A DNA stretch of 64,000 bases, taken from Dictyostelium discoideum. Taxonomy: Eukaryota. This document shows positions 4,674 through 63,080 of this stretch, piece by piece. Position numbers and translations under genes: made by a program. Below the pieces are notes generated by a model that was not told where the DNA came from, made no database searches, and was given only the letters and a program-made list of their open reading frames with translations. Numbering within the stretch: position 1 is the stretch's first letter; each line of letters begins with the position of its first letter. Location: assembly GCA_000004695.1 (NCBI GenBank), contig CM000155.2:2848001-2912000 (forward strand), written 5' to 3'.

Positions 4674-4832
4674 AATTTTAAATTGTTTTAAAAATAAATA
4701 GAATCATACAAATATTTTATATTTCTTAGAATTTTATTTTTTATTATTTTTTAGAAATCAAAATACAAATATTTTATATTTCTTTAGAATTTATATTATT
4801 ATTTTTTTATTTTTTATTTTGTTTTGTACTTT

Positions 4833-8482
<3,650 letters not shown>

Positions 8483-10754: not shown

Positions 10755-11253
10755 CCATTACAACCTCAACAATTTCAACCAAAACCACCTTACCAACAAA
10801 GACCACAGCAATTTAGCCAACAACAACAACAACAACAATTTAATCCAAATCAACAACAACAATTTAATCCAAATCAACAACAATTTAATCCAAATCAACA
10901 ACAGCAACAATTTAATCCTAATCAACAGCAACAATTTAATCCAAATCAATTTAATNNNNNNNNNNNNNNNNNNNNNNNNNNNNNNNNNNNNNNNNNNNNN
11001 NNNNNNNNNNNNNNNNNNNNNNNNNNNNNNNNNNNNNNNNNNNNNNNNNNNNNNNCCTATGAATAATCCTAATATTGTTCCACCACATTTTAATCAACAT
11101 CAACAACAAAATCATAACCAAAATCAACCACCTCATCATATGAATAATCCAAATATCATACCACCACCCCAAAGATTTAATAACTCAAATGTGGTGCCAC
11201 ATTTCAACCAACTATCAAATCAAAATCAACCACCCCAACGACCTCAATATTAA
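8788..11253 (+). CDS. WDR33 / Pfs2-like pre-mRNA 3'-end processing factor: WD40 propeller with long Gln/Pro-rich C-terminal tail; 2 exons, CDS interrupted by an assembly gap
   Basis: Exon 1 is 8788..9078 (Gly-rich N-terminus, then [23 protein letters not shown]...QPDQLYIRE), donor GTATGT at 9079. Exon 2 starts at 9270 after acceptor TTAATTAG ([112 protein letters not shown]...[24 protein letters not shown]). This is nearly colinear with human WDR33 ([24 protein letters not shown]...[47 protein letters not shown]...). A poly-Q/P tail follows, then N-run 10956..11055, then [10 protein letters not shown]...PQRPQY with stop at 11251-11253. The frame across the gap cannot be verified. Confidence 0.85.
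10956..11055. other. Assembly gap (100 N) inside the WDR33-like CDS
   Basis: Run of exactly 100 n within the poly-Gln-coding CAA-rich region; true size and frame are unknown. Confidence 0.95.
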
Positions 11254-11388
11254 TATTGTAAATAAAAATTTTTATATTACCAAAAGTTTGTGGTAAACCT
11301 AGTTTTTTTTTTTTTTTCCTGTGCAATAAATATTAGTTATACTTTTTTATAATTATAAAAACAATGTTGTTTAAATAATTCAATAATT

Positions 11389-11419
<31 letters not shown>

Positions 11420-11524
11420 CAACAAAACTTCCCATTTTCATTTTTTTTTTTTTTTTTTTTTAAATTTTTTTTTTTTTTTAAGTCAACTTTTCTTTAATTT
11501 TCATTTCATTTTCAAAATCATAAA

Positions 11525-12379
11525 ATGTTTCAACTTTTGACAAAAACAATAGTATCAAATGTTGGTAAAAATAGTTTAAATAACATTTTTACAAATAATT
11601 CATTTAAAAAAAAAAGATTTTTTTGTAATGTTGGGAAACCAATCGAAATTAATCAACTTAAACAATCGTTCTCAGAGTTATTGAAATTAGATTACAAGAA
11701 AACTCAAGAGGAAGGTTTACCAAAAAATTTATTAGATGTTCAAAATGATATTTTAAAATCAAATGAAAAAGAACTTGATACTCAAACTAGAATGATATCA
11801 TCCATTTTCCTTTGGAGATCATTATGTTTTTTAAATCAAACTCCAAATGTAATTAATAATAATTTTTTTTTAAAATTTATTAATAATCAACCTACTCGCA
11901 AACTAATTAATTTATTATATTAATTATATTTATATTTATTTTATTTTATTTATATTATTTTATAAATAAAATAGAGTATGAAAAAAGAAGAATTAGATAA
12001 ATTATGGAATTTATTAAATATTGATAATAAAGATATAATTAATAAACATGAATATATTTCAATATTAAATCATAGAATTGGTATAAGTTTTACAAGTAGA
12101 TATCTTTTACCAAAATTATTTGAAGATATAAAAAGGGTTGTAAAAGAAGTTAAAGATGCAAATGAAAATAATTCAACACCAATATCATCATTATTACCAT
12201 TAATTAATATAGCATTCACATCATCAGCTCATTTAAGTATGTGGAAAGAAATGAAATATTTAGGTAATGAAATAAGTTTAAATAAAAATGAAATATTTGA
12301 AAACATCAGAAATGCTTCATATGAAATTGATTATTTATTTGATTATACTTCAATTTATCATATTTTAAATTTAAATAAT

Positions 12380-12410
<31 letters not shown>

Positions 12411-13062
12411 CAACATCTCTATTACCATTAATCATTGATACAAATAAAGATAGTGAACCAATAAATTTTGAAAAGTTTAAAACTTTTAGAGTTTATGATG
12501 TTGAATCTTTTTCTTTTAAAAATTTAACAATGAAAACTGAAAATATGTCAACTGAAACAAATGAAAAAGCAATGAATGAATTTAATGAAAATAAAAATCA
12601 AATGAAAAATCAAAAAATTGATAGAAATGGTTATTTTATGACTGGTTTGTATTTTTTTTTTTTTTTTTTTTTTATATCTAATATTTACTAACTATTATTA
12701 TAAATTATTATTTAGAATTATCAAATCAACCATTTATTTTAATTTTAGGTAGCTCATTTAAATTTGATATTTGTTTTGATACAAATTTACAAATGACACA
12801 TAGTGGTGTTATTGATAAAGATTTTAAAAAAGTTCAATTATATGGTACATATGATGAATTTGATAAAACAAAAGTAGAATCAGAATATAATTTAGAAATT
12901 GATCAAAATATTGTACCAGATGATAATGAACCATTTATTCAATTAAAAGGAACTCATAGAAAAATTGAAACCAGAACAAATACTGAAAAAACAATTTATG
13001 ATATGGATGTAATAATTAATTTACAAAGAAGAAAATTATTACATGAAGTTGAAGTAAAATAA
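11525..13062 (+). CDS. Hypothetical protein, proposed 3-exon gene, about 440 aa, with possible N-terminal mitochondrial presequence
   Basis: ORFs 11525..11923, 11978..12691 and 12793..13062 can be joined with phase-consistent splice sites. Exon 1 is 11525..11848 (donor CCAAAT|GTAATT). Exon 2 is 11975..12644 (acceptor AAATAG, donor ACTG|GTTTGT, phase 1). Exon 3 is 12749..13062 (acceptor AATTTTAG). The N-terminus MFQLLTKTIVSNVGKNSLNNIFTNNSFKKKRFF is basic and hydroxylated like a presequence. No recognisable domain. Exon 1 might instead be a separate small gene. Confidence 0.4.
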
Positions 13063-13144
13063 TTTAAAAATAAATTTCTAATTTATATATATATTTAATT
13101 TAAAATTTTAAATAATTTATTTATTAATTTTATTTATTTATTTA

Positions 13145-13177
<33 letters not shown>

Positions 13178-13186
13178 TTTTTTTTT

Positions 13187-15916
13187 TTAATCATCAGAAG
13201 ATAATTGTCTTTTTACTAAATTATGATAAATTCCATCAGTATTATTTAATAATTCTTTATGAGTACCCATTTCTTCAATTTTACCTTGATTAATTACAAC
13301 TACAGTATTTGCATTTATTACAGTTGATAAACGATGAGCAATTACAATGACAGTACGATCTTTCATAATTTCATCGATTGCTTGTTTAACTAAATATTCA
13401 CTTTCAGCATCAAGAGCAGAGGTAGCTTCATCTAATAAGAGGATCATTGGATTTTGAATCATAGCACGAGCTATTGCAACACGTTGTTTTTGACCACCAG
13501 ATAAACGAACACCTCTTTCACCAACTATAGTATCATAACCATTTTCAAACTCTTCAATGAATGAATGAGCATTTGCTTTCTCTGCAGCCGAAATAATTTG
13601 ATCCATTGTTGCACTATCATTACCAAAAGTGATATTATCTTTGATTGAACCAGCGAATAATACAGGTTCTTGTGATACATAACCAATGATACCACGATAC
13701 CAAACTGGATCCAACTCTTTGATATCAATACCATCGAATGTGATTGAACCTGAATTTGGATCATAAAATCTTTCAATCATTGCAATTACAGTTGACTTAC
13801 CACCACCAGATGGACCTACCAAAGCTGTGATTGTACCTTTTGATAATTTCAAATTTAAACCCTTTAAAACACTATTATTTGGTCTAGTTGGATAAGAGAA
13901 TTCCACATCTTTCAATTCAATTTCACCCAATGGATTTTGAATTTGTTTACCACCTGAAACATTGATAGCTGGTACTCTATCGAAAATTTCAAATATACGA
14001 TCCGATGAACCGATTGCCTTTAAGAAATCAGTCATTAAACTACTAATGAAAGCCAAACTCATTGCCAATGAAAGTGTATACAAAAGGAATGAAGTTAAAT
14101 CACCAGTTGATAATGTACCATCTAAAACCTGTCTAGCACCAACATAAACGATTAATACAATTGCCAATTGTGCTACTAAAAATACAATACCACTGAATAC
14201 ACCGGTTGCAACAGCCAATGATTTACCAATTAAATAACTACCATTAATATCTTTTGAATAGAGGTCAATGAATTTTTGTTCCTTTGAAAATGAACGTACT
14301 GTTCTTATATTTGAAATTACCTCTTCACCAGTGGTTGATGATTTTGCTAATTCATCTTGAAATTGTTTACCCAATTGTTTAATTTTCTTACCATATACAA
14401 CGGTTGATATTGCAAGTACAGGTACAATACCTAACATTAATAATGTTAATCTCCAATTGGTAATGAATAATAAAATAACGGAACCAATAATTTGAATTGT
14501 ATATCTAAATAACATTGAGATATTAACAGTGACTGAATTTTGAATCACTTGTGAATCACTTGATAATCTACTTAATAGCTCACCAGTTCTACATTGATCG
14601 AAATAACCAATCTCTTGATTAACAATTGATGAGAATAAATTTCTACGAATACGTGCAACAAATTTTTGACCAGCTAAATAGAATAACCAACTTCTAACCA
14701 ATGTTGAAATTGAACCAATTACGAAAATAACGACCAATGCCAATGTACTTGAATTTAAATTATTAAAACTATGAGTGGTTGCAACGACTTGAACAATTGA
14801 ACCGAAAAAGTAAGGCATAGCCAATGATGTCAATGAACTAAATACCAAAGCAACCATTGCTGCTAAAATAATTGGTAACTCTGGTCTTGATAATTGAATT
14901 AGTCTCTTTAGATTTGAATGTTTAACCTCAACTTTTTTATTTAATCTTTTCTCTTCATTTGATTGATTATAAAATTGTTTCTCTTTATCTGATAATCTTT
15001 TATACTTTTTAAAACTTAATTGTAATGTTATTATATGTAATACTAAAAATAATACCATCAATGGTATACCAACTAAAACAATTACAATTATAATTTCTCT
15101 AACTTTTAATGAATCAAATAATGGACTTTCATTTGGTAAATAACTATCACTACCATTATAAATTTCATTAGATGATGATGATGTTGTTATAATATTATTA
15201 TTAATTGATAAAATTTGTGTAATTGTAAAATATGATTTAATAACATTATAAATTAATGCAATAATTGTTATAATATAACTAATAGTATGATAAATAAAAC
15301 TATCAGAGAATATTAATAACAACCAAAATAATGATATAAAATATGATATTAATAATATATCAAATGTTGAAAAATAAAAAAAGTATTTCATATTAAATGT
15401 ACCACCATTTAATGCTTCAATTTCTGATGAATCATATGATGTTGTTGTTGATGTTAATGTTTGTAGTAGTAGTGATGTTGGTGATGGTGTTGGTGTTGGT
15501 GTTGGGGATGGTGTTGAGGTTGGACTCACACTACCACTATCAGTAGTATTACTATTAATTGATGGATAAAAAATAATGCTTCTTGCATTTGTACTGAAAT
15601 ATAATGCATTTATTGATATTAAATAACCAGCTAATATTACTAATGATACAATTTGGATAAATAATTTAATTGAATTCCTTTGTTTACTATCCAATTTAAA
15701 TTTAAAGAAAATTGTATCTTCAATTAATTCCTCTTCATCAATCTCTTCACCATTTATTGATTTCTTATTATTTAAAGAGAATTGTTTATTTGCATTATTA
15801 ATTCCAAATTTTTGGTCACTACGATTTGTAGTTGATATTGATTGTTTTTGTTGTTGTTTATTATATGTTTCTAATAATGATTCATTTTCTTCATCATTAA
15901 AATTCTTCTTTGTCAT
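13187..15916 (-). CDS. ABC transporter, B-family half transporter (N-terminal extension + TMD + NBD)
   Basis: Single 909-aa ORF. The C-terminal NBD has Walker A GPSGGGKST, signature LSGGQKQRVAIARAM, Walker B ILLLDEATSALD and H-loop VIAHRLST. The ABCB exporter TMD lies upstream. The N-terminal extension has extra hydrophobic segments and an SPTSTPSPTPTPTPSPTS linker. Confidence 0.85.
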   Translation of the reverse strand: MTKKNFNDEENESLLETYNKQQQKQSISTTNRSDQKFGINNANKQFSLNNKKSINGEEIDEEELIEDTIFFKFKLDSKQRNSIKLFIQIVSLVILAGYLISINALYFSTNARSIIFYPSINSNTTDSGSVSPTSTPSPTPTPTPSPTSLLLQTLTSTTTSYDSSEIEALNGGTFNMKYFFYFSTFDILLISYFISLFWLLLIFSDSFIYHTISYIITIIALIYNVIKSYFTITQILSINNNIITTSSSSNEIYNGSDSYLPNESPLFDSLKVREIIIVIVLVGIPLMVLFLVLHIITLQLSFKKYKRLSDKEKQFYNQSNEEKRLNKKVEVKHSNLKRLIQLSRPELPIILAAMVALVFSSLTSLAMPYFFGSIVQVVATTHSFNNLNSSTLALVVIFVIGSISTLVRSWLFYLAGQKFVARIRRNLFSSIVNQEIGYFDQCRTGELLSRLSSDSQVIQNSVTVNISMLFRYTIQIIGSVILLFITNWRLTLLMLGIVPVLAISTVVYGKKIKQLGKQFQDELAKSSTTGEEVISNIRTVRSFSKEQKFIDLYSKDINGSYLIGKSLAVATGVFSGIVFLVAQLAIVLIVYVGARQVLDGTLSTGDLTSFLLYTLSLAMSLAFISSLMTDFLKAIGSSDRIFEIFDRVPAINVSGGKQIQNPLGEIELKDVEFSYPTRPNNSVLKGLNLKLSKGTITALVGPSGGGKSTVIAMIERFYDPNSGSITFDGIDIKELDPVWYRGIIGYVSQEPVLFAGSIKDNITFGNDSATMDQIISAAEKANAHSFIEEFENGYDTIVGERGVRLSGGQKQRVAIARAMIQNPMILLLDEATSALDAESEYLVKQAIDEIMKDRTVIVIAHRLSTVINANTVVVINQGKIEEMGTHKELLNNTDGIYHNLVKRQLSSDD

Positions 15917-16639
15917 GATTTGTGAACCTTTTTTTATGATTGAATTTATTTATTTAAAAAAAAAAAAAAAAAATTAAAAAAAAAAATAATTATAAAATGT
16001 ATTAAAAAAAAAAAAAGGGATACAAAACAAAGAAATAAAATAAATTACAATAAAAAAGATACAAAAGATAACGTTTTTTTTTTTTTTTAAATAGTTTTTT
16101 TTTTTATTTTCATTTTTATTTTTATTTTTTTTATTTAATTTTTTTTATTTTTTTTGGGGTAAGAATTTGGTGTACATCTTTGCATAAAAAAAAAAAATCC
16201 AAAAAAAAATTAAAAAAATTAAAAAAAATAAAATTAAGCTTATAGGGTTAGAATCGCAACAAATTAAATAGATTATTATTTTGTGAGTGTAAGTGGTCAA
16301 AAAATACGTGTTTTTTTTTTTTAAAATAAATAAAAAAATATTTATTAATTTAAAATGGAAAATATAATTGTGATGAATTTGGTGCATCATGATTTTAATT
16401 TATTTATTTTTTTTATTTTTTATTTTTTTTTTAAAAAATTTTTCTCAAAAATAAATAATTTATTTTCACAAATAAATAAAAAAAATAGTGTTAATTTATT
16501 TTATTTAATAGTAATAAAAGAGAAAAAAAAAAAAAATAATAAAATAAAATTAAATTTGAGATAAACACACTGTTACCATCTAGATTAAATTGTAAAATTT
16601 TTTTTTTTTTTTTTTATTTAAAATTTTTTTATTTTTTTT

Positions 16640-17464
16640 TTAAGATGATACAAATTGTTTTAAAAATGGTAACCAATTTAAAGGTATTGGTGAAGACCAA
16701 ATACCTAAACTTTTAATATTATTATTAATAATTAATTGAAATCTTTGAGTTAATTCTTCAGTTGAGAAAGGTTGATTATTTTCATCAACAGTCATAACAC
16801 CAACAGCCAATTTATTCAATGGAATTGATTGAATTGCAAATTGTAAAGCACTTTGAAAACCTTGAAAAGTTCCAGCATAGGTTGACATTGTATAAATTTT
16901 ATCAACTGAAGTTTGAGCCAACAATGATAAATTCCAAAATGGTGTCCAAGTTGCTGCACAAACCGTTAGAGTTTTATTATATTGATGTAATTGTTTAGCG
17001 AATGAATCAATGAAATTTGCATATCCAATTGAGTCTCGTTCATCACCACCAACTGGTTCAATATCAATATTCCATCCATCGAATCCTTCATCGATTGCAT
17101 GTTGAATAGCAGAGTCAATGAACGGTTGTGGATTATTAATTAATTGACGTGCATATTCTATCACTTCAGGTCTACCAAATGGACAACATGTTGATACCAT
17201 TGGTAAGGTTTTTAAACCCGCTGTTTGTAATGGATATTGAACATCTGTAAAATTATTTACAATCAATGTTGAATTTGCTCCCAAATTAAATCTTTCAAAT
17301 GCTACTGAATCTAAAATTTGAGTTAATGATAAAATTTGTTCTAAATCACTATTTATAGTTTCATTAGTTCTTTCAAGTCCCATCCACGTTAAAACACTTT
17401 GTTCTCTACATTTAACAATAACAACAATTAAATTTATTAAAAATAAAATAATTATTGATTTCAT
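16640..17464 (-). CDS. Secreted GH18-family protein, di-N-acetylchitobiase (CTBS)-like
   Basis: 274 aa with N-terminal signal peptide (MKSIIILFLINLIVVIVKC). The motif GFDGWNIDIEP matches the GH18 DxxDxDxE region, with the second Asp replaced by Asn while the catalytic Glu is retained. It resembles human chitobiase YMDGINIDIEQE, and MSTYAG / KLAVGVM resemble the MSYDE / KLVMGV blocks. Confidence 0.5.
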   Translation of the reverse strand: MKSIIILFLINLIVVIVKCREQSVLTWMGLERTNETINSDLEQILSLTQILDSVAFERFNLGANSTLIVNNFTDVQYPLQTAGLKTLPMVSTCCPFGRPEVIEYARQLINNPQPFIDSAIQHAIDEGFDGWNIDIEPVGGDERDSIGYANFIDSFAKQLHQYNKTLTVCAATWTPFWNLSLLAQTSVDKIYTMSTYAGTFQGFQSALQFAIQSIPLNKLAVGVMTVDENNQPFSTEELTQRFQLIINNNIKSLGIWSSPIPLNWLPFLKQFVSS

Positions 17465-17867
17465 TTTTTTTCTTTTTTTAAAATAAAAATAAAATAAAAA
17501 AATGAAAAAATAAAAAAATAAAAAAATAAAAATTAAAAAAAAAGATTTTTTTTTTTTTTTTTAATGCCCAAAACTCTGCAAAAAGATATTTTTTAAAAAA
17601 TTTAATGTGGTAAATCTTATTTATTTTTAGTATTTAGTTAATTTAATTGATTATTTTTTTTTTTTTCTTATTAAACAGTTTGAAATTTCATCAATACTCA
17701 AAACAAACAATTCTCAGATTATTGGCGTTCTTTCAATTAATGATTTTTTAGAAAAAATAAATAATTAACTAAACACAAAAAATAAATTAGATTTACTTTT
17801 TTTTTTTTTTTTTTTTTTTGTGTTTTTTAATTTTATAGGAAAGGAAGGATATTTTATTTTTTTAATT

Positions 17868-18077
17868 TTAACAATAATTAAAAAAAAGTGAAACAAACAA
17901 TGAATTAAAACTTTCTGGCATTTCTTTCCAATTCTTTTTTGCATCCATGAACGCATTGAAAACTTCAGAACAATCTTGGCTTTTAATTTTGCAAACTAGA
18001 CCATCAGCTTCATTAGTTTCACCCAACACAAAAGAAAGAGTAATAATGATTAAAATAAAAATAATAACTTTGTTCAT
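17868..18077 (-). CDS. Small secreted Cys-containing peptide (69 aa), signal peptide + KIKSQDCSEVFNAFMDAKKNWKEMPES
   Basis: The ORF has a hydrophobic N-terminal signal. A homologous sequence (QIKSQDCSNISNVLMDATKNWKEMPES) recurs at 61436-61560 on the + strand, suggesting a small gene family. Confidence 0.35.
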   Translation of the reverse strand: MNKVIIFILIIITLSFVLGETNEADGLVCKIKSQDCSEVFNAFMDAKKNWKEMPESFNSLFVSLFFNYC

Positions 18078-18887
18078 TTTTTAAAATTTTTATTTATAGT
18101 TTTTTTTGTTATTTTTTTAAAATATTTTAAAATAAATGATTTTTAAAAATAAAATTATCTTATTTTCCTTTTTAAATTACTATTTTTTTTTTTAATTACT
18201 TAAATTTTTTAAAAAAATATATTAAAAAATAAAATAAAATAAAATTAAAAATAATTACCATTCGTCATAACGAATAATTACTATTTCTAATTTCTAATTA
18301 AAGTATTAAATATAAACATAAATTTTTATTCTCATTTTTAAATTCAATGGGTTTAAAAAATTAAAATAGTTTTTTTTATTTTTTTTTTTTTCAAAACAAA
18401 ACCCATTTGCATAAAATTTAATATCTAAATGTTCCAATTAAAGATGAATATATTATTCTGGTAAAAATAAAAAGAGGTATATAACCTAAAACAGCACAGT
18501 TTATTTTTATTTAAAAGATTTTTTATTTTTTTTATTTTTATTTTTATTTTTATTTCTAACAAACAAAACATATTTTAAATTTTCACACCCCCTTACTTTT
18601 TTAATTTTAATTTTTTTTATATTCAGTTCTATTTTTAGTTTTATGATAATATTATTTTATTATATAGAATTAAATAAAAACAAATAGATCAATTAATAAA
18701 TTTTTTTTTTTTTTTTTATTTTTCTTAATCTTATCATGATCATCAAAAACATATATAAATTTTTAAAAAAAAAATAAAATAAACAATTTCCCAAATAAAA
18801 AAATCTTATTTTTTAAAGTTTGATTTATTTTTTTCTTCAGAAATAGAAGAGAGTGAATTATGTTTGAAGGTAATTTTGATTTTAATT

Positions 18888-18934
<47 letters not shown>

Positions 18935-19379
18935 CAAAACAACTTTTATTCTTTTTTTTTTTTTTAAAAAATCAAAGCAACTTTTAATTTTTTTTTTTTT
19001 CTATTATTTATTTAATACAAATACAATTTGTTTAATATTTTTTTTTATATTTTGAAAAAATTTTGGGAAAATGAAGGATTGGGATGTAAATTTTATTCCC
19101 TTCCATTCCTTATGATATTAAGAATATATGGTATGTAACATCCTCTCAATATTTATACTAAATATAAAATTAAAAAATATACTAATTAATTTTATATTTA
19201 GAATATCAGAATTAAATTTAATTTCTTTTTAAATAATATCACAATTAATGATTTTAAAGAAATTAAAAAGAAATTTGAAAATAATTAATTAGTTTATAAA
19301 CGAATTTTAGTTGATATTAAAACTGGCTATTATGATGGGAATCAAGATGAAATTTTATTTAAAAACATGAATATATTTT

Positions 19380-19555
19380 AAAAGAAAATTCACAACTGTT
19401 CTATCAACCACCCATCTGCACCACCAATCACTAATGGCTCACCATCTGCACCACCAACCACAACTGTTCCATCAACTACTCATCTGCACCACCAACCACT
19501 AATGGCTCACCAACTACTCATCTGCACCACCAACCACAATAATAAATTAACTTTG
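19380..19555. repeat. Short tandem repeat (about 30-45 bp units, CATCTGCACCACCAA(C/T)CAC... )
   Basis: Repeated units ccatctgcaccaccaatcactaatggctcaccatctgcaccaccaaccacaactgttccatcaactactcatctgcaccaccaaccactaatggctcaccaactactcatctgcaccaccaaccacaat are seen directly. Confidence 0.7.
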
Positions 19556-19826
19556 TTTTTAATTTTAAAAAAAAATTTAGGGTTAGTGATTTTTTTTTTT
19601 TCACTCAGTTAGTGTATACGTTACGTAGTCATTTTGAGCGTTGGCCGCGTAGTTAAATTAAATAATAAAATTCACTAAGCAGGGAAGGGAAATTTTCCTA
19701 CAACAATTACAATATAACCCACCGAAAGTTGTCAATGTAGGTTACTTTTAAATAATATCTATTTATTTATTTTTATAAAATTTTACTGGGTTTCAGAGGG
19801 TAATGTTTTTTTTATTTATTTTATTT

Positions 19827-19929
<103 letters not shown>

Positions 19930-19972
19930 CAAATTTATTTGTATTAATCAAAATTTAACAAAAAGATTATTA

Positions 19973-20285
19973 TTGTGGGACAGAACACGATTTAGAAATT
20001 TCCGAAAATCAGGTTTAATTTCAAATGAAATTTATAAATTTGAAGAAAATGAAAAAATATTAGCAGACAAAGGTTATGTTGGAGAGAGTTTATTTTTTTT
20101 ATGCCCTGAAAAAGGTGACAGAGAAAGCTTTTTAAAATATCAAAAAGAATTAAGGTATAATTTTACCATATCGTCAAATGATAGAAAACGTTTTTAGCAG
20201 AATTAAATCTTGTAATATATTAGTTAATAGTTTTCGCGGTGATATTGATATATTATCAGAATATATCAAAATTATTTTTTAATAT
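19973..20285 (+). mobile_element. Remnant of a PIF/Harbinger-type DDE transposase (DDE_Tnp_4-like), frameshifted
   Basis: ORF 19973..20197 encodes ...NEKILADKGYVGESLFFLCP...; ILADKGY matches the conserved D-x-G-Y block of the third DDE region of Harbinger/PIF transposases. The downstream segment in another frame (SRIKSCNILVNSFRGDIDILSEYIKII) resembles the C-terminal conserved block. There is no intact ORF. Flanked by a less AT-rich stretch at 19600-19800 and by tandem AT-rich repeats at 20340-20560. Confidence 0.4.
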
Positions 20286-56129: not shown

Positions 56130-56229
56130 NNNNNNNNNNNNNNNNNNNNNNNNNNNNNNNNNNNNNNNNNNNNNNNNNNNNNNNNNNNNNNNNNNNNNNN
56201 NNNNNNNNNNNNNNNNNNNNNNNNNNNNN
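56130..56229. other. Assembly gap (100 N)
   Basis: Run of n immediately upstream of the degenerate second copy of the duplicated segment. Confidence 0.95.
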
Positions 56230-56236
56230 TTTGTTT

Positions 56237-56950
56237 TTATATATTATGTATTCTAATTACGGACTCATCAACATACTCTTTTGTCACTAACAGATAAAGT
56301 TTCGTTTGATTATCTTNTGGTGAAAACATCAGCATCAGATTGTAATTGATCAGCTCTTTTATAACCCGTTTTGTTTTTGAGTGATTGAGATGTGATTCCA
56401 CCATTATTGGAAGTTGTGACAGCTTCATGTGTTGATCAAGCATGGGTGGTAGAGAGCTCGATAGCTTTTTCAACTAGGTCATCTGATGATTTTCATTTGG
56501 TTATTTCAATATCCCTGTGCAATTAATTTTTACTTGTCTCCGCCTCTCTAAATTCAACATTTACTTTGTACTTCAAATCATTTTTATCAATAGTAACTTC
56601 GTTAAATAATACACCAAATTCATCACTTTGATTGAATTCAACATCTTTAAATTCCAAAAAAGCGATATCTTCGGGTGGATACTTTTTATTAGATTTATTG
56701 TTTTTACTGTAGATCATTTTTTGGAACGAAAACTTTAAAAAAATAAAAAAATAAAAAAAAAATACTTTTTAATTTTTTTAATTTTTTTTTTTATATTTTT
56801 TTTTTTTATATTTTTTTTTTTTAAATTTTTTTTTTTAATTTTTTTTTATTTTATTTTTTAAAGTTTCGAACAATTATATATAAAAAAAAAAAAAGATATC
56901 CCTTCGGTTAATTATAGTAACAATACAGACAACAAGAATAATTATAAAAT
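56237..56950 (-). repeat. Second, degenerate copy of the 25447-26160 segment (ORF1 intact, ORF2 with several stops, identical 3' tail)
   Basis: 56523..56717 encodes the identical 64-aa ORF1. 56237..56500 is a diverged, stop-containing version of ORF2. 56717..56950 repeats the AT-rich tail ending gatatcccttcggttaattatagtaacaatacagacaacaagaataattataaaat. Confidence 0.7.
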
Positions 56951-57129
56951 AAAAAAAAAAAAAAAAAAATCTTTTTTTATCTTTTTATTTTTATTTCTTA
57001 TTTATTTTTATTTTTTTATTTTTTATTTTTTTTTTAATTATTTTAATCCCGTGAGTTTTTTTTTATTATTATTTTTAATTCTTTTATATTTGAGATGATT
57101 ATTATTAATTAAATGACTTTGAGTTTTTT

Positions 57130-57312
57130 TTTTTATTTTTCTATGCCCAAAATTACCATATTAATTTCGGCAGCCATATTAATTTCAGCCTAAAATAGTT
57201 GGTCTGTGCATGCCAAAATTAATATGGCTGCTGAAATTAATATGGTAATTCTAGCAGACATAAGTCCCATGCCAAAATTATCATATTAATTTCAGCAGCC
57301 ATATTAATTTTG
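57130..57312. mobile_element. Foldback-type repeat, second locus of the 45-bp unit (direct/inverted arrangement), thug-like
   Basis: cccaaaattaccatattaatttcggcagccatattaatttcagcc ... ccaaaattaatatggctgctgaaattaatatggtaatt (inverted) ... ccaaaattatcatattaatttcagcagccatattaattttggcatggg. Same unit as at 24951-25108. Confidence 0.45.
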
Positions 57313-57540
57313 GCATGGGACAAATATGAATTAAAAAGAAAACAAACTTTAGAACTAAAAGAATTAAAAAGTGAATGTGGGGAAGGCCCGGTATTATCTA
57401 AAGAAGAATCAAAAGAATTGGATGATTTAGAAAGAAAATATAAACGTGTTGGAAATTAAAAAATAAAAAAAGGTAAAAAAAAAGTAGATAAAAATAAAGA
57501 TATTAAATTATAATGTGTTTATCCACGCTCGAGGAAGGAT

Positions 57541-59243
57541 TTATAATCCAACTCTTTCTAATCTATCATATTCATTTTGTAATAAACCAATTTCTTTTTT
57601 TATTTCATATTGTCTTTCTTTTGTTGTCACTGGTTTGAAATTAATTATTTCATCAGTATCTGACAACCAATTTTTAGATTTGAATAATTCATATAAATCA
57701 GAATGTGTCATCATTAAACGCAATACACCACCCGAACCATATGGTTCAATTTTAATTCCAAAAGTTTTCAATGTGGTTTTTAATTCAGCTTCTTTAATTG
57801 TATGTTTATTATCTCTGTTCATTTCCTGATGATATTTAAATTCATTTACAAAATCAGTGAATTTAATTTTGTTCAAATCTTTACCTTGTAAAATGTAATT
57901 TTTTTTAATATATTTCATATTTGCCGGTAATTGATCACTTTTCATCCCAATAAATGTTTCAGATTGTGGTATAACATCTTCATTAAATTTAGATTTATCA
58001 CTATTTTTCAATTTCCAATAAAATGATTCAGCTACATTTGGATCGTCCATATATTTACCTAACTTTTCAAAATAATCTTTATTTCCTTTGAATTCAGATG
58101 ATAAATCAAATATAGCAAAACGTCTTTATACTGATGCGCCTATCTTTATATTATCAGAATTACAAGTGAAAATCATATTCATATAATTAGGTACATTTAC
58201 TTTATCATTTTGATTTCTTTTACGAATGGTAATTAATAGTTCAGTAATAATATATTTAATACCCTCACCAACATTATTCCAATCCTTTACAATTGGTTCA
58301 TCAACCACCATTAATAGCTTTTTCTCAATAATATCATTCCATCCACCAAAAAGTCACAATTATTTACTGATGCGGATATATTATAACCTAAAATCTTTGT
58401 AATAAAGAAATTTGTAAAAATACCTTTTCCAATACCACCCATAAATAATCTCCACATTAATGCAGTCCTAAGTTTACGTCCTTGACTACATGCTAACCAA
58501 TTAATTAGATATGAATATTGTTCTTCATTAAGAGAACAAATTGCAACCTTCAAATGGTTCATAATCACATCAACACCCTCCAGTGTCGTGGTGCTGACCC
58601 CGTTTGGTTCGCTATCATAGAACCAACCTGCAAATTCATTAACACATAAACTACAATCATCTCGTTTAAAAATTCTATCTTTATCTGGAACCCAAGTTGG
58701 TGTACAATGATTTGGTTCATACTCCATAAACCATTGGTAAACATCAAAATTTGGATAACCATCAATTTTGATTATTCTTCTTCTAAAATATGTTTTCTCT
58801 GCATCTGAATACGATAAATCTTTTATTTGTTTATCACCTGGCACCCAAAATCTAAATATTGGTGAACCACCTATTTTAATAAAGTATGTTGATATATACT
58901 TTTTTATATTCTCAACTTCGTCAAATGTTTTTGCAGTTACACACATAATATTTAATGTGTTTACATCAAATGCTTGTTTTGACGAACAAAATAAATGTGG
59001 GTATGATTGATTAAATAATGACTTGTTCACTTCTACTGGTTCTTGATTTAGCGGGCAAGTTAACTTGGCTACTAAATCTTCTTGCACTAAATCTTCTTCT
59101 TCTAAATCTTTTTGCTCCACTAAATCGTTTTCCAATTTATCAACAAGCTCTCTCCAACTCTCATCTGAATCTCTTCTATTTTTATCTGTATGTCCAAGTT
59201 CTTTTGCTCTTTCAATAAGTTGTTGTTTATTAGGTTTTACCAT
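57541..59243 (-). pseudogene. D5-type primase-helicase (superfamily 3 helicase) pseudogene: one frameshift and one in-frame stop
   Basis: Piece 1, 58311..59243: ...EEQYSYLINWLACSQGRKLRTALMWRLFMGGIGKGIFTNFFITKILGYNISASVNNCDFL matches the D5_N / Walker A neighbourhood (W..G......f...G.G.NGKS.F..l...lG.Y), with a degenerate P-loop. Piece 2, 58126..58311, in another frame: MVVDEP (Walker B hhhhDE) ...IKYIITELLITIRKRNQNDKVNVPNYMNMIFTCNSDNIKIGASV matches the SF3 K.LTGGD.I..R..y.....F.P.f.l.F.tN..P motif C. A TAA follows in frame, then RRFAIFDLSSEF (the conserved ..RR...i.F block) continuing as piece 3, 57541..58050. The order and spacing of the motifs are canonical for NCLDV/virophage/polinton-like-virus D5 helicases. 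Confidence 0.6.
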
Positions 59244-59259
59244 TTTATATAACTATATA

Positions 59260-59703
59260 TTATGTAAAGTTTAAAATAAAAAATAGAGAAAAAAATAGAA
59301 AAAAATATCTTTGTTGGTTTTTTATAACATTAATTTCAAGTCTTTCATAGTGTTTTCTATCAATAAAAACATTTTCAACTTTATATTCTGGTATCTCATC
59401 ATTGAACGCCAATAAAATATAATCATAATTATATAAATTTATTTCACTACCATCTGTCATATTATAAATTGATAGAGATTGATGTTTTTTGATTTTATCT
59501 AAATATATTTTTAATGATACTATAATTCTTACATCTCCGCTAATTATTGTATAATATTGATATGGTCTATTTTGATAATTCATTTTTATATATCGGTATA
59601 TTATGTAAAGTTTAATGTAAATGTGATGTAAAAAGTTGTGTAAAAAATTTTGATTTTTTTTTTCAAAATCTTTTGATTTTTTATTATTTTTATATTTTTT
59701 CAA
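59260..59703 (-). CDS. Hypothetical 147-aa ORF adjacent to the D5-like pseudogene
   Basis: ORF with moderate complexity (…YQNRPYQYYTIISGDVRIIVSLKIYLDKIKKHQSLSIYNMTDGSEINLYNYDYILLAFNDEIPEYKVENVFIDRKHYERLEINVIKNQQRYF). No homology recognised. Confidence 0.3.
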   Translation of the reverse strand: MKKYKNNKKSKDFEKKNQNFLHNFLHHIYIKLYIIYRYIKMNYQNRPYQYYTIISGDVRIIVSLKIYLDKIKKHQSLSIYNMTDGSEINLYNYDYILLAFNDEIPEYKVENVFIDRKHYERLEINVIKNQQRYFFLFFSLFFILNFT

Positions 59704-59781
59704 AATTTAAACTACATATACGGTAGTTTTTTTTGATTGTATATAAAATGTCAGAAAAAAGTATAACAGATTTAGTTACAA

Positions 59782-60213
59782 TTGCAAAAGAAACAAAAGT
59801 ATTATCTGTTTGTTCCAGTATCTCTAGCTGCTTTTGTAAACCAAAATATCAAAAAAGAAAGAAAATTAAAAAAATTCGAAAGTAGAGACTTTTTTGCCGA
59901 TATCAAGGATCAATTAGATGGACTGGAGTGCTCCTTATTTAACACCATCAACCTTTTTTTTAGTCCAATTGAAGGTTTTGACCAACTTTCCGACTTATTA
60001 GTAAAAGCCATGTTCAAAGATGAAATTGCTCCATTTGGAAATGCAACCAATGTTATTAAAGCTTTTTGTAAAAGAGTCTCTAACTATGGAGAATTAATTC
60101 ATAATTTTATAAGATGTTATGACAAAGATGATTCATATAATATTTTAGAAAATTATGAAGCTTTAAAAATATCCCTAAACAAACTTTTGTTGTTTGTTGA
60201 AACACAAATTTAA
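59782..60213 (+). CDS. Hypothetical 143-aa ORF, divergent from 59260..59703, abutting the GC-rich palindrome
   Basis: MQKKQKYYLFVPVSLAAFVNQNIKKERKLKKFESRDFFADIKDQLDGLECSLFNTINLFFSPIEGFDQLSDLLVKAMFKDEIAPFGNATNVIKAFCKRVSNYGELIHNFIRCYDKDDSYNILENYEALKISLNKLLLFVETQI. Normal complexity, no homology recognised. Confidence 0.3.
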   Translation: MQKKQKYYLFVPVSLAAFVNQNIKKERKLKKFESRDFFADIKDQLDGLECSLFNTINLFFSPIEGFDQLSDLLVKAMFKDEIAPFGNATNVIKAFCKRVSNYGELIHNFIRCYDKDDSYNILENYEALKISLNKLLLFVETQI

Positions 60214-60239
60214 TAACAATATAAAAATAAAAACAATCA

Positions 60240-60800
60240 CCTCCGCAAATTCGCAGTTTTTTGCGGGTTTTAATTTTATCACAACAACAATAATTATTTA
60301 TTTATTTTTTCGCGTGTAGAAAAGTAGAGAGTGTAGAGTGATTTCTGACGAACTAGTACGGATTTCACAAATACACAAAAATAGTGCACGTCATATAAAA
60401 TCAATAGAGAACCCCTATAACTCCTCTTACGTTATGCACGATATTGTGTTTGTGTAATTCTGTGCGCGTGTATTAAAATCAAGAGGGATTGTTAGTACGT
60501 TATCATTATACATGACGTACACAGTTTGCACTTTTTTTTATGTTTTCGTACTTTTTTTTACTACTCACTCTACAACTCTATTTTTCTACATATATATAAA
60601 AAATTAAAAATAATATTAATATTACATGAATATATGTATAGAGTAATATATAGATAATAAAAATATGGAATATAGTTTAGAGTGATTTTAGGTTATAGGA
60701 GCATAGCCGAAGGCTAATGCGATAGGGAAGCAGCAAAGCGTTCCCTCACACCTTCCCTCACACCTTACCATTTTATGACCTTCCAGAATATAGTAATTTT
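60240..60800. repeat. GC-enriched region containing nested inverted repeats (about 300 bp imperfect palindrome) and a small perfect hairpin
   Basis: Hairpin CCGCAAA-ttcgcagttt-TTTGCGG at 60244-60267. TAGAGAGTGTAGAGTGAT (about 60322) pairs with ACTCACTCTACAACTCTA (about 60562). GTGCACGTCATATAA (about 60387) pairs with TTATACATGACGTACAC (about 60513). A direct repeat CCTTCCCTCACACCTT x2 lies at 60745-60775. Composition is clearly less AT-rich than the surroundings. Confidence 0.5.
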
Positions 60801-61386
60801 CAAGGTACTATTGATAAAAAAAAAAAAGCTAAATTATTTTAAATTTGTTTTCTTTTCACCAATGATAAATCTAATGATGGATTCACAATCATTTCGATAT
60901 AAAACAAATAAATTATTTATTGTTTTTTTTTGTAAGGTTGTTAAATTATAATTTTTCTTTTTCTTCTTATTATTATGTTTATTATTTAATAAATTATTAA
61001 TACTAATATCTAAAAATGTTATTTATTTATTAATTAATTAATTAAGTACATACTATTGGATGTTTTATACATGCCATAAACCAACCTATCAAGAATATGT
61101 TGAAAGTTTACAATCAATAATTTAAAATTGTTATAATATATATTAATAATTAGGGAAATTGAAGAGAATAAAATTTACATCCTAATCCTCCATTTCCCCA
61201 AAAATTTTCAAAAATAAATAAATAATTTAAAATATTAATACAAATTGTATGTGTATATTAAATAATAATAGATTAAAAAAAAAAAAAAAAAAAAAAAAAT
61301 TAAATTAAATTAAATTAGAATCAAAATTTCCTTCAAACATAATTCATGCTCTTCTATTCCTGTAAAAAAAAAAATTAAAATTAAAA

Positions 61387-61566
61387 ATGTTGGGGTGTGA
61401 AATTTTAAAAATATGTTTGTTTGAAACAAAAAATAAAAAAAAAAATGGTGTAGATCGCCAAATTAAAAGCCAAGATTGTTCAAATATTTCCAATGTATTG
61501 ATGGATGCAACAAAGAATTGGAAAGAAATGCCAGAAAGTTGGAAAAATAAATTAAATTTTTATTAG
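61387..61566 (+). CDS. Paralogue (possibly degenerate) of the small peptide gene at 17868-18077
   Basis: 59-aa ORF MLGCEILKICLFETKNKKKNGVDRQIKSQDCSNISNVLMDATKNWKEMPESWKNKLNFY. Its core matches KIKSQDCSEVFNAFMDAKKNWKEMPES, but it has no signal peptide. Confidence 0.25.
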   Translation: MLGCEILKICLFETKNKKKNGVDRQIKSQDCSNISNVLMDATKNWKEMPESWKNKLNFY

Positions 61567-61835
61567 TAATTTTTTAGTTTTGTTGCAAATTTTAATAATC
61601 AACAAAATAATAATAACTAGTAATAATAAAAAAACATAAAAAAAAAAAATATTTTTTTGAATCCAAACTTTACAACTTTAAAAAAAAAAAACTAAAACTA
61701 AAAAAGGTAGAGTGCACTTGTTAGGTTTGATGCTAATTATTTATTGATTTTTAATATTATTTTTTTTTTTTTTTATTTCTGGCAAACTTAATATGGAATA
61801 TCAGTTACAACCTGTGCAATATGAAAGCACTTGGT

Positions 61836-61950
61836 CTATACATAGAATAGGAATGTTGTTTTTGTAAAACTCTTCACCTGTATTACCATGCAGGCAAAAA
61901 GTTCCCCTTCACTTAGAAAAGCGTTGAAAAGAATGGCAGCAAAGATTGCA
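61836..61950 (-). pseudogene. Isolated antisense fragment of an ABCG/PDR-type transporter TMD exon (relic)
   Basis: The minus strand encodes [34 protein letters not shown] followed by a GTAATA donor. This is the conserved PDR/ABCG TMD block (..LFSRGGALFFAILFNAFSSLLEIF..). No upstream acceptor or exons; it lies 1.3 kb from a real abcG gene on the other strand. Confidence 0.4.
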
Positions 61951-62604
61951 CCACCTCTAGTGAAAAGACCTGATAGATTGGTTTGCATATTATAAATTAT
62001 TTTTTTTTTTTTTAAATGCAACAAAATAAACAATCAATCATTTGAACAATTATATTTTTAGAGAAAATGAGTTGGGTCATTTATAGATTAAAAAAAAAAA
62101 AAAATCAAAAAAATTGATTTAATTAAATTGTTTTATTTTTTATTTTTTCATTTTTAAATTTTATAAATTTCTAATATTTGTTTATGTGTTTTATTGTTTT
62201 TTTTTTAAAAAAATTGAAAATAGATAGGTAAAATAAAAAATTAAAATTAAATGGTTATTGCTTTTATTTATTTTATTATTTTAAATCAAATAAAATAAGT
62301 AATTAAATTTTGGTTTTTATTTTTTTTTTTATTTAAAAATTCAAATTTGACAATCAAATCAAATTTTTGGTTTTTTTTTTTAATATCTATTTTTTTATTT
62401 AAAATATATTAACTTTTCTTTTGTTTCTCAAAAAAATTTATTAAAAAAAAATAAAGTAAAATAAAATAAAAATCTGAATTTAAAATAAAGACTTTTTCGA
62501 ATGGGACTATTAAAAAAAAAAAATAAAAAAATAAAACTGTTATTATTTGAAAAAAAAATGGATTTCGTAAAAAATAAAAAGACGATAAAATAGATATTTT
62601 GGAG

Positions 62605-62644
<40 letters not shown>

Positions 62645-63080
62645 AAAAGAATTTAAAAAAAATAAAATTAAAAAAAAAAAATACTATTGAGACTCTTTTA
62701 AAAAGATTATTCAAAAAAATTTTCCAAAATGTGACCGCTAACAATGCATTGATTGCGTTTGGTGGGTAGCAAAACCGTCATGACAGTTACATGAAAATAT
62801 TTAAAAATAAAAAAAAGTGAAAAAAAAATAAAAAAAAGTGAAAAAAAAATAAAAAAAAAAAATAAAAAATAAAAAAAAATAATTTGTTGTTGCAATATTG
62901 AATCTAGATGATGACAACAGTTTACTAATGACAAAACATTCAACATCAACCATCTATTTTTGTTAGGTTATTTTTAAACTAACCACAGTATTATTAATAT
63001 TTTATTTTTTATAATATTTTTTTTTTTTTTTTCCATTTTAAAAGACAATTTTTTTTTTTTTTTATTATTGTTATTATTTT

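Follow-up and report, generated by a model that had tools for sequence, protein, structure and literature searches.

We describe here a repeat-studded, non-coding segment of the Dictyostelium discoideum AX4 genome (positions 60240–60800 of a 64,000-nucleotide stretch of chromosome 6, hereafter the window), which is organized around an imperfect palindrome and lies on the outer side of a broken gene for a D5-like superfamily-3 helicase (S3H). This helicase gene belongs to an island that forms the right-hand portion of an endogenous virus of the Maverick/polinton (mavirus-like) type, now decayed, and by its position the palindrome is part of the same element. Because two related elements, one in Heterostelium album (locus L011) and one on a mavirus-like viral contig from IMG/VR (L002), carry repeat-studded palindromes at the same place, the most probable explanation is that the palindrome is what remains of a viral replication or terminal site and not a transposon of its own. 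The window has a GC content of 23% and contains four 100-N gaps; coordinates refer to it unless a locus is named. The non-coding module comprises the following features.

60243..60266, no strand assigned: small hairpin with a perfect 7-bp stem, CCGCAAA (60243–60249) and TTTGCGG (60260–60266), and a loop of 10 nt, with a T-rich run behind it
60315..60590, no strand assigned: imperfect palindrome of 276 bp, center at 60452.5, GC 33.5%, CpG observed/expected ratio (o/e) 1.3
60316..60341, + strand: outer left arm, 26 nt, GTAGAAAAGTAGAGAGTGTAGAGTGA, with GTAGA three times at 60316, 60324 and 60333 (8–9-bp spacing)
60379..60401, + strand: inner left arm, 23 nt, with an ACGTCAT core
60505..60527, − strand: inner right arm, 23 nt, with an ATGACGT core
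60565..60589, − strand: outer right arm, 25 nt, inverted copy of the outer left arm with two substitutions and a 1-nt gap
60591..60696, no strand assigned: AT-rich spacer in which the arm motif recurs twice in direct orientation, as GTATAGAGTAAT at 60636–60647 and as AGTTTAGAGTGATTT at 60674–60688
60697..60790, + strand: GC-rich block (~44% GC) with the mini-hairpin motif AGCCGAAGGCT (CCGAAGG at 60707–60713) and a tandem repeat
60741..60766, within the GC-rich block: tandem repeat of the unit TTCCCTCACACC, 2.2 copies, 100% identical

The palindromic structure is real and non-random. Aligned with its reverse-complemented right half, the left half is ~60% identical across its full length (score 44 versus −5 ± 9.6 for shuffled sequences), and the inner arms are 78% complementary to each other. 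The secondary-structure prediction proposed by the first-pass annotation of this segment gave a single-stranded DNA fold of −39.8 kcal/mol (z = −4.5), a stability that was reached by 0 of 200 shuffles. When all 5532 centers with GC-matched arms in the window were compared, the palindrome ranked second, the first rank being taken by the thug-S/mir-7131 hairpin at 57263. The same annotation had placed here a palindrome of ~300 bp with two nested pairs of inverted 15–18-mers around a center near 60450. The palindrome and its nesting hold, at a slightly smaller size, and the arms proved to be longer than described, since the outer pair of 26/25 nt and the inner pair of 23 nt share one common center. 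As the neighboring open reading frames (ORFs) are still largely open, the mismatch between the arms is original and does not reflect the decay of once-identical repeats.

The module is also set apart by its composition and by a concentration of short repeats. The GC content of the palindrome contrasts with 15–21% in the AT-rich stretches flanking the module (0.205 at 60500–60699 and 0.15–0.16 at 60800–61099), in agreement with the sharp rise noted at first reading, and its CpG o/e of 1.3 compares with 0.55 window-wide, placing its CpG density among the highest of the window. Approximate 14-mer pairs are in excess in both direct orientation (16 versus 2.9 ± 3.2 expected) and inverted orientation (19 versus 5.2 ± 4.0). 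Between 60300 and 60700, TAGAG occurs at seven sites, with 0.45 expected, and the same interval holds 3/4 of the window's TAGAGTGA sites, 4/12 of its GTACG sites and both copies of ACGTCAT (2/2) as well as of CGCGTGTA (2/2), the two CGCGTGTA copies being in direct orientation. GTAGA, repeated three times on the outer left arm, is found twice in inverted orientation on the right arm. Together with the adjacent AT-rich tract (60591–60696), the D. discoideum palindrome thus shows iterated motifs inverted about a dyad, the layout of origins served by superfamily-3 (SF3) initiators. The tandem repeat in the GC-rich block and the perfect 7-bp-stem hairpin, both seen at first reading, were likewise recovered. 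The hairpin has a predicted DNA fold of −6.5 kcal/mol (z = −3.0). Together with its T-run (60243–60275) it begins 30 nt past the stop codon of DDB_G0293456, an arrangement reminiscent of the 3′-end hairpins on giant-virus and virophage transcripts. The sole other stretch of the window matching the CpG density of the palindrome (13–15 CpG per 275 bp) lies at ~4800–5100 and corresponds to the 3′ end of a 994-codon ORF (4833–7817, − strand) without Pfam match.

To place this module in its genomic context, the following features of the element have to be considered.

57541..59583, − strand: S3H (D5-like, DUF5906) helicase pseudogene, DDB_G0293464 and DDB_G0293454
59748..60213, + strand: DDB_G0293456 / ACTFIT_008991, a small orphan gene flanked by the helicase gene and the palindrome
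22755..23159, − strand: penton-like ORF, contiguous with the helicase part in the long-read assembly
22307..22651 and 21291..22286, − strand: capsid-like gene DDB_G0293426, with a stop between its two parts, contiguous with the helicase part in the long-read assembly
56230..57320, no strand assigned: thug-S-type repeat with the mir-7131 hairpin (57219–57305), in or beside the element and at the break of the reference assembly

The D. discoideum S3H is a full-length but disrupted member of the DUF5906/VapE-type superfamily-3 helicases. Its reading frame is interrupted by a frameshift near 58311 and by a stop at ~58126, which takes the place of the first D in an almost invariant DDRR motif; the two assemblies agree in both defects. 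The current annotation spans these defects by introns or divides the gene into DDB_G0293464 and DDB_G0293454, and a 310-aa helicase ORF has no record in the gene index. We found 213 relatives at E ≤ 1e-3, the closest being from the dictyostelid Synstelium, and nine further top matches that were looked up are mostly metagenomic proteins of 500–580 aa. The palindrome lies 0.7–1.1 kb outside the start of the S3H gene.

The capsid-like and penton-like ORFs, 21291–22651(−) and 22755–23159(−), are 40–52% identical to H. album ORFs that adjoin an A32-like ATPase, and the capsid-like protein has a sole homologue among 5.8 billion proteins, namely H. album PPL_12645 (41% identity). The label 'capsid-like' is based on synteny and size and designates a candidate. 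No polymerase, integrase, FtsK/A32-type ATPase or adenain/Ulp1-type protease gene was seen in the D. discoideum copy. Lacking a protein-primed polymerase and an rve integrase, this copy is therefore a remnant and not a full member of the polintons. The H. album locus (16.5 kb) is richer, encoding a Pox_A32-like ATPase (E = 1.7e-4, below the cut-off), penton-like and capsid-like ORFs, an Ulp1-type protease (Peptidase_C48, E = 1e-6), a chromodomain ORF consistent with an integrase C-terminus (without rve match), a 691-aa ORF with polymerase-like motifs recognized by eye only, and an S3H whose alignment with the D. discoideum protein covers the full length (24% identity, E = 7e-29). Such an inventory is that of a Maverick/polinton. 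For P. pallidum, D. fasciculatum and A. subglobosum, polintons are on record (PMC3671162, PMC4642659). As far as its accessible text extends, the polinton/virophage literature searched reports none for D. discoideum; part of it never mentions 'Dictyostel', and the only place where it names D. discoideum is the species key belonging to another tree. An unannotated decayed polinton-type virus, split across gaps, is present in the reference genome of D. discoideum; its remnant genes (DDB_G0293426, DDB_G0293454, DDB_G0293456 and DDB_G0293464) are all annotated as hypothetical.

The strongest palindrome within the 16.5 kb of the H. album locus (15244–15529, 286 bp; arms 65% identical, DNA fold z = −8.4) lies 490 bp outside the start of the S3H gene, past a 48-codon ORF. 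All seven sites of TTTCCATA in this locus (7/7) fall inside the palindrome, where they form alternating strand groups around an AT-rich center, with paired sites 11 bp apart; the palindrome is followed by a GC-rich block ending in (CA)9. On the IMG/VR contig, the gene order reads S3H, integrase (rve plus chromodomain), a 586-aa ORF and, further on, a virophage major capsid protein (MCP_V20_C). Here, two copies of a 105-bp palindrome are found within the 315 bp that separate the contig end from S3H, 160–470 bp outside the S3H start, with GTAGACATA iterons at 9-bp spacing; the iteron 18-mer occurs at one contig end only. In D. discoideum, H. album and the IMG/VR contig alike, the palindrome is linked to the helicase gene, as origins are in SF3 systems. 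The search for the same sequence at the ends of homologous islands, as proposed at first reading, hence returned analogous iteron palindromes without sequence similarity to one another.

A second parallel is provided by CCGAAGG, the sole GC-rich 7-mer common to all three modules. Its placement past the palindrome and its orientation with respect to S3H are the same in each of them. Among random window triples, 0.15–4.6% have such a GC-rich 7-mer in common, depending on the GC threshold, which was set after the fact, and we consider the statistical weight of the palindrome-CCGAAGG parallel among the three modules to be moderate. In D. discoideum, this heptamer sits in a mini-hairpin, AGCC-GAA-GGCT. 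GAA-loop mini-hairpin motifs adjoin the palindromes in H. album (GCGAAGC and ACCGAAGGT, L011 15546–15570), in D. discoideum (AGCCGAAGGCT, 60703–60717) and on the IMG/VR contig (CCGAAGG in the reading of the other strand, 112–125); they resemble the very stable d(GCGAAGC) hairpin reported for some phage origins. Nine more distant S3H loci, obtained by searching viral and metagenome contigs with alignments of the contig's helicase and of a broader S3H set, had CCGAAGG at the corresponding position in no case (0/9). They have no consistent palindrome or motif, and the parallel is therefore limited to polinton/mavirus-like relatives.

Further repeats were noted in the H. album element. A second iteron cluster (TATGTCATA / TATGACATA, inverted and in tandem) is located on its far side at L011 2130–2360, and all four TATGAC[AG] sites of the locus fall either in this cluster or by the GC-rich block at 15600; the two positions may represent the two ends of the element. 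The inner arms of the D. discoideum palindrome contain a similar TATATGACG.

We propose a model in which the palindrome, the AT-rich spacer and the GC-rich block would together represent a non-coding control module, sub-terminal in position, that belonged to a mavirus-like virus of the Maverick/polinton type; this virus would have integrated in an ancestor of D. discoideum and decayed thereafter. In the live virus, the opposed arm repeats around the central spacer, next to the AT-rich tract, may have been bound by an initiator that the virus itself encoded. The adjacent S3H would be the most likely candidate, loaded head-to-head in the manner of SF3 helicases on palindromic origins in small DNA viruses; an integrase, or a protein-priming machinery recognizing the genome end, would be less likely initiators. 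By analogy with these systems we infer protein binding at the palindrome and an origin or terminal function, and we see about an even chance that the palindrome is a relic sub-terminal cis element of precisely this kind, with a former role in either initiator/helicase loading or end recognition. A role as end-recognition site for the integrase or priming machinery fits almost equally well. The argument for function is architectural and draws on three loci, and the change of iteron sequence with the layout kept would fit the pattern of an initiator-site pair. The D. discoideum element itself is dead and its palindrome a fossil with no current replicative role, because the helicase is broken and no polymerase, integrase, protease or ATPase genes were seen. 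The first-pass annotation had suggested a terminal element at the edge of the island. This stands insofar as the palindrome fits a cis element that an invading replicon brought along and lies outside S3H, and fails insofar as it has no paired terminal inverted repeat: no inverted partner of the palindrome or of the GC-rich block was found in the window, in the two loci compared from a second D. discoideum assembly (L001 and L010), or in the H. album locus, including the far side of its element.

Several observations weigh against the interpretation as a leftover viral site. The arms of the palindrome are only ~60% identical, its CpG o/e (1.3) is unlike that of the helicase ORF (0.57), and in D. 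discoideum an oppositely oriented gene sits between it and the helicase gene. The three palindromes are without shared primary sequence, and the GC-rich blocks of D. discoideum and H. album show overall no similarity above that of random GC-rich windows. Strong palindromes outside S3H are confined to the three loci described; upstream palindromes are absent from 7/9 of the more distant S3H loci, with weak ones only at the other two (L009 and L003), and the positional coincidence is weak when counted over all loci (about 0.1). As to the viral nature of the island, the capsid-like and penton-like ORFs have no Pfam, PHROG or PDB match, the AlphaFold model of the capsid-like protein reaches a pLDDT of 35, and its comparison with virophage MCP by hhalign was negative. 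An alignment of the capsid-like protein scanned on viral contigs gave no match.

We weighed these points against what other explanations would require. A foldback element or miniature inverted-repeat transposable element (MITE), that is, a non-autonomous DNA transposon that landed independently beside the island (for example an unrecognized relative of thug or DDT), would account for the terminal inverted arms of 26/25 nt with their two substitutions and 1-nt gap, the length of 276 bp, the lack of coding capacity and the hairpin fold, features that MITE/foldback elements including thug-S share. The surroundings are rich in transposons (thug-S at 56230–57320; a DDE_Tnp_4 fragment at 19973–20197), and D. 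discoideum elements reportedly insert near one another. However, no target-site duplication of at least 3 bp was detected within ±4 nt of the palindrome ends, where matching is limited to trivial TA dinucleotides that would put the boundaries inside the arms, and neither a pattern search allowing up to 3 mismatches nor blastn identified a second copy in the 64-kb window; no further copy was seen in L001 and L010 (~85 kb examined overall). These two results argue against an independent transposon. Moreover, the palindrome differs in sequence from the thug-S copy of the window, its position beside a viral gene is kept in another genus, H. album and the IMG/VR contig carry analogous structures in the corresponding position, with CCGAAGG beyond them, and the arm repeats go on outside the palindrome at 60636 and 60674. 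An independent MITE is the main rival, and we regard it as unlikely; were the palindrome an ordinary MITE, the finding would be routine. Alternatively, the motifs could be transcription-factor sites through which the endogenous virus controlled the small gene and S3H, as part of a promoter or other regulatory sequence. In H. album and on the IMG/VR contig the palindrome is indeed 5′ of S3H, the CACACC-type repeats of the GC-rich block are reminiscent of Dictyostelium CA-rich/G-box elements, and ACGTCAT/ATGACGT resembles a bZIP half-site; virophage genes are driven by giant-virus-type promoters. In D. discoideum, however, the palindrome is 3′ of the small gene and 0.7–1.1 kb from S3H with that gene in between, and a strict two-fold symmetry over ~280 bp with 7–8 phased iterons would be unusual for a promoter, which makes this possibility distinctly unlikely.

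The imperfect palindrome of ~2 × 138 bp at the edge of the element could also be viewed as a fossil end-to-end junction, derived either from head-to-head terminal repeats of a circle or concatemer or from an unfolded imperfect hairpin telomere. Concatemer junctions of hairpin-ended viruses are imperfect palindromes, as established for poxviruses, and the palindromes of the IMG/VR contig are located at a contig end. Arm identities of 60% in D. discoideum and 65% in H. album are, however, far under the pairing of known hairpin telomeres; with the neighboring ORFs largely open, the arm mismatch appears original; and the IMG/VR iteron 18-mer is confined to one contig end. Ordinary polinton/virophage terminal inverted repeats, for comparison, average ~96% identity (PMC13215967). 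We consider a junction very improbable, and the hairpin telomere proposed in the first-pass annotation is not indicated. Finally, nearby thug-S hairpins yield small RNAs in D. discoideum, and the significantly stable DNA fold could point to a hairpin-RNA or microRNA-type locus, or to a chance or neutral inverted duplication without function. Rfam models gave nothing on 60240–60800 even at E ≤ 5, except a chance-level Arrc14 match (E = 0.69) at 60207–60284, across the left flank and the small hairpin; none of the 12 DrnB-dependent candidates listed in Table S1 of PMC6161686 corresponds to the palindrome (compared by eye); and 60% pairing would make a poor Dicer substrate. A chance origin is at odds with the motif enrichment and with the parallels in relatives, and we give this last pair of explanations little credence. 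Further searches were negative: the arm consensus had 0 matches in viral and metagenome contigs, blastn against plasmids and phages gave no match, and no tRNAs were found in the window. Terminal repeats or a target-site duplication were not found for the H. album element.

Our preferred reading, a leftover viral replication or terminal site, can be compared with known systems. Like Mavericks/polintons and mavirus-type virophages, the element containing the palindrome has S3H (DUF5906), penton-like and capsid-like genes, to which the H. album relative adds the A32-like ATPase, the Ulp1 protease, the chromodomain ORF and a probable protein-primed polymerase (motifs by eye). The order end, S3H, integrase, polymerase, seen in H. 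album and on the IMG/VR contig, matches that of mavirus, and the module lies between S3H and the element end, where such elements carry their terminal repeats. Unlike these known ends, which are paired, near-identical inverted repeats, we find a single iteron palindrome without partner, and the D. discoideum copy is a relic that lacks polymerase, integrase, protease and ATPase genes. The pentanucleotide palindrome of SV40/polyomavirus and the papillomavirus E1 site share with it the inverted short repeats around a dyad and the flanking AT-rich tract. Origins of SF3 initiators are likewise found beside the SF3 helicase gene, and their repeat sequences vary among relatives while the architecture is kept. 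They differ in measuring 60–100 bp, compared with 276 bp here, and in that a defined origin-binding domain is proven to bind them, whereas binding at the present module is putative. Ddp2-family plasmids and the inverted terminal repeats (ITRs) of DIRS-1, which the first-pass annotation had suggested for comparison, likewise represent Dictyostelium replicons or elements, and their inverted repeats measure a few hundred bp. The genes next to the palindrome, however, have no relative among them in word-indexed searches of a collection including NCBI nr, in which proteins of such elements would be expected if deposited, and ITRs or long terminal repeats would, unlike the palindrome, not be self-complementary.

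Polintons/Mavericks and mavirus-type virophages are thought to replicate via protein priming at their terminal repeats. We know of no described DNA target of polinton/virophage superfamily-3 helicases, nor of an origin assigned to polinton D5-type helicases. A repeat-studded palindrome beside the helicase gene in three divergent elements provides a concrete candidate for such a target. More tentatively, palindrome, spacer and CCGAAGG might constitute the origin or helicase-loading site of S3H-encoding mavirus-like polintons, with an architecture kept from dictyostelid elements to free virophage-like viruses and iterons that co-evolve with the helicase; we hold this broader proposal to be possible, although on the doubtful side. 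If true, it would be the first defined replication element of this virus class besides terminal repeats, and a helicase-driven internal or sub-terminal start of replication would be possible besides protein priming at the ends. In the literature searched, as far as the accessible text of these sources goes, a polinton/virophage non-coding control region of this type is undescribed.

The remainder of the locus was analyzed with the help of the second, long-read D. discoideum assembly (GCA_054883475.1; L001 and L010, 31 kb compared). This assembly is identical over the palindrome region, and in it the sequence corresponding to 62957..56230 of the window runs directly into 26162..11058, leaving out a 30-kb block (26268–56129) that in the window lies between the N gaps 26168–26267 and 56130–56229. 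Each of these gaps adjoins a copy of one ~740-bp thug-S-type repeat (25425–26162 and 56230–56967), and the block reflects either a scaffold error or a structural variant. Without it, the order reads GC-rich block, palindrome, small gene, S3H, thug-S, penton-like ORF, capsid-like gene. The two assemblies differ by 31 substitutions at 56233–56517 and, from 56518 on, by only two homopolymer-length variants; since they are essentially identical from there onward, their comparison is uninformative on evolution.

Immediately 3′ of the helicase pseudogene lie the thug-S repeat and the mir-7131 hairpin, the latter with an Rfam match of 96 bits at 57219–57305 within a near-perfect hairpin (57140–57320) that matches on both strands (96 and 94 bits). 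thug-S is a multicopy DNA transposon and a source of microRNAs (PMC6161686, PMC4894637). The DDE_Tnp_4 (Harbinger/PIF-type) transposase fragment at 19973–20197(+) comprises 74 codons (Pfam E = 9e-4) and is located just past the capsid-like gene. The remainder of the window is ordinary host DNA, encoding BRCA2, a WD40 protein, ABC transporters and a methyltransferase. In the intergenic DNA (3 kb) on the right-hand side of the palindrome, 61793–61999 is an inverted copy (~207 bp, 89–91% identity) of an exon from the neighboring ABCG-type transporter gene.

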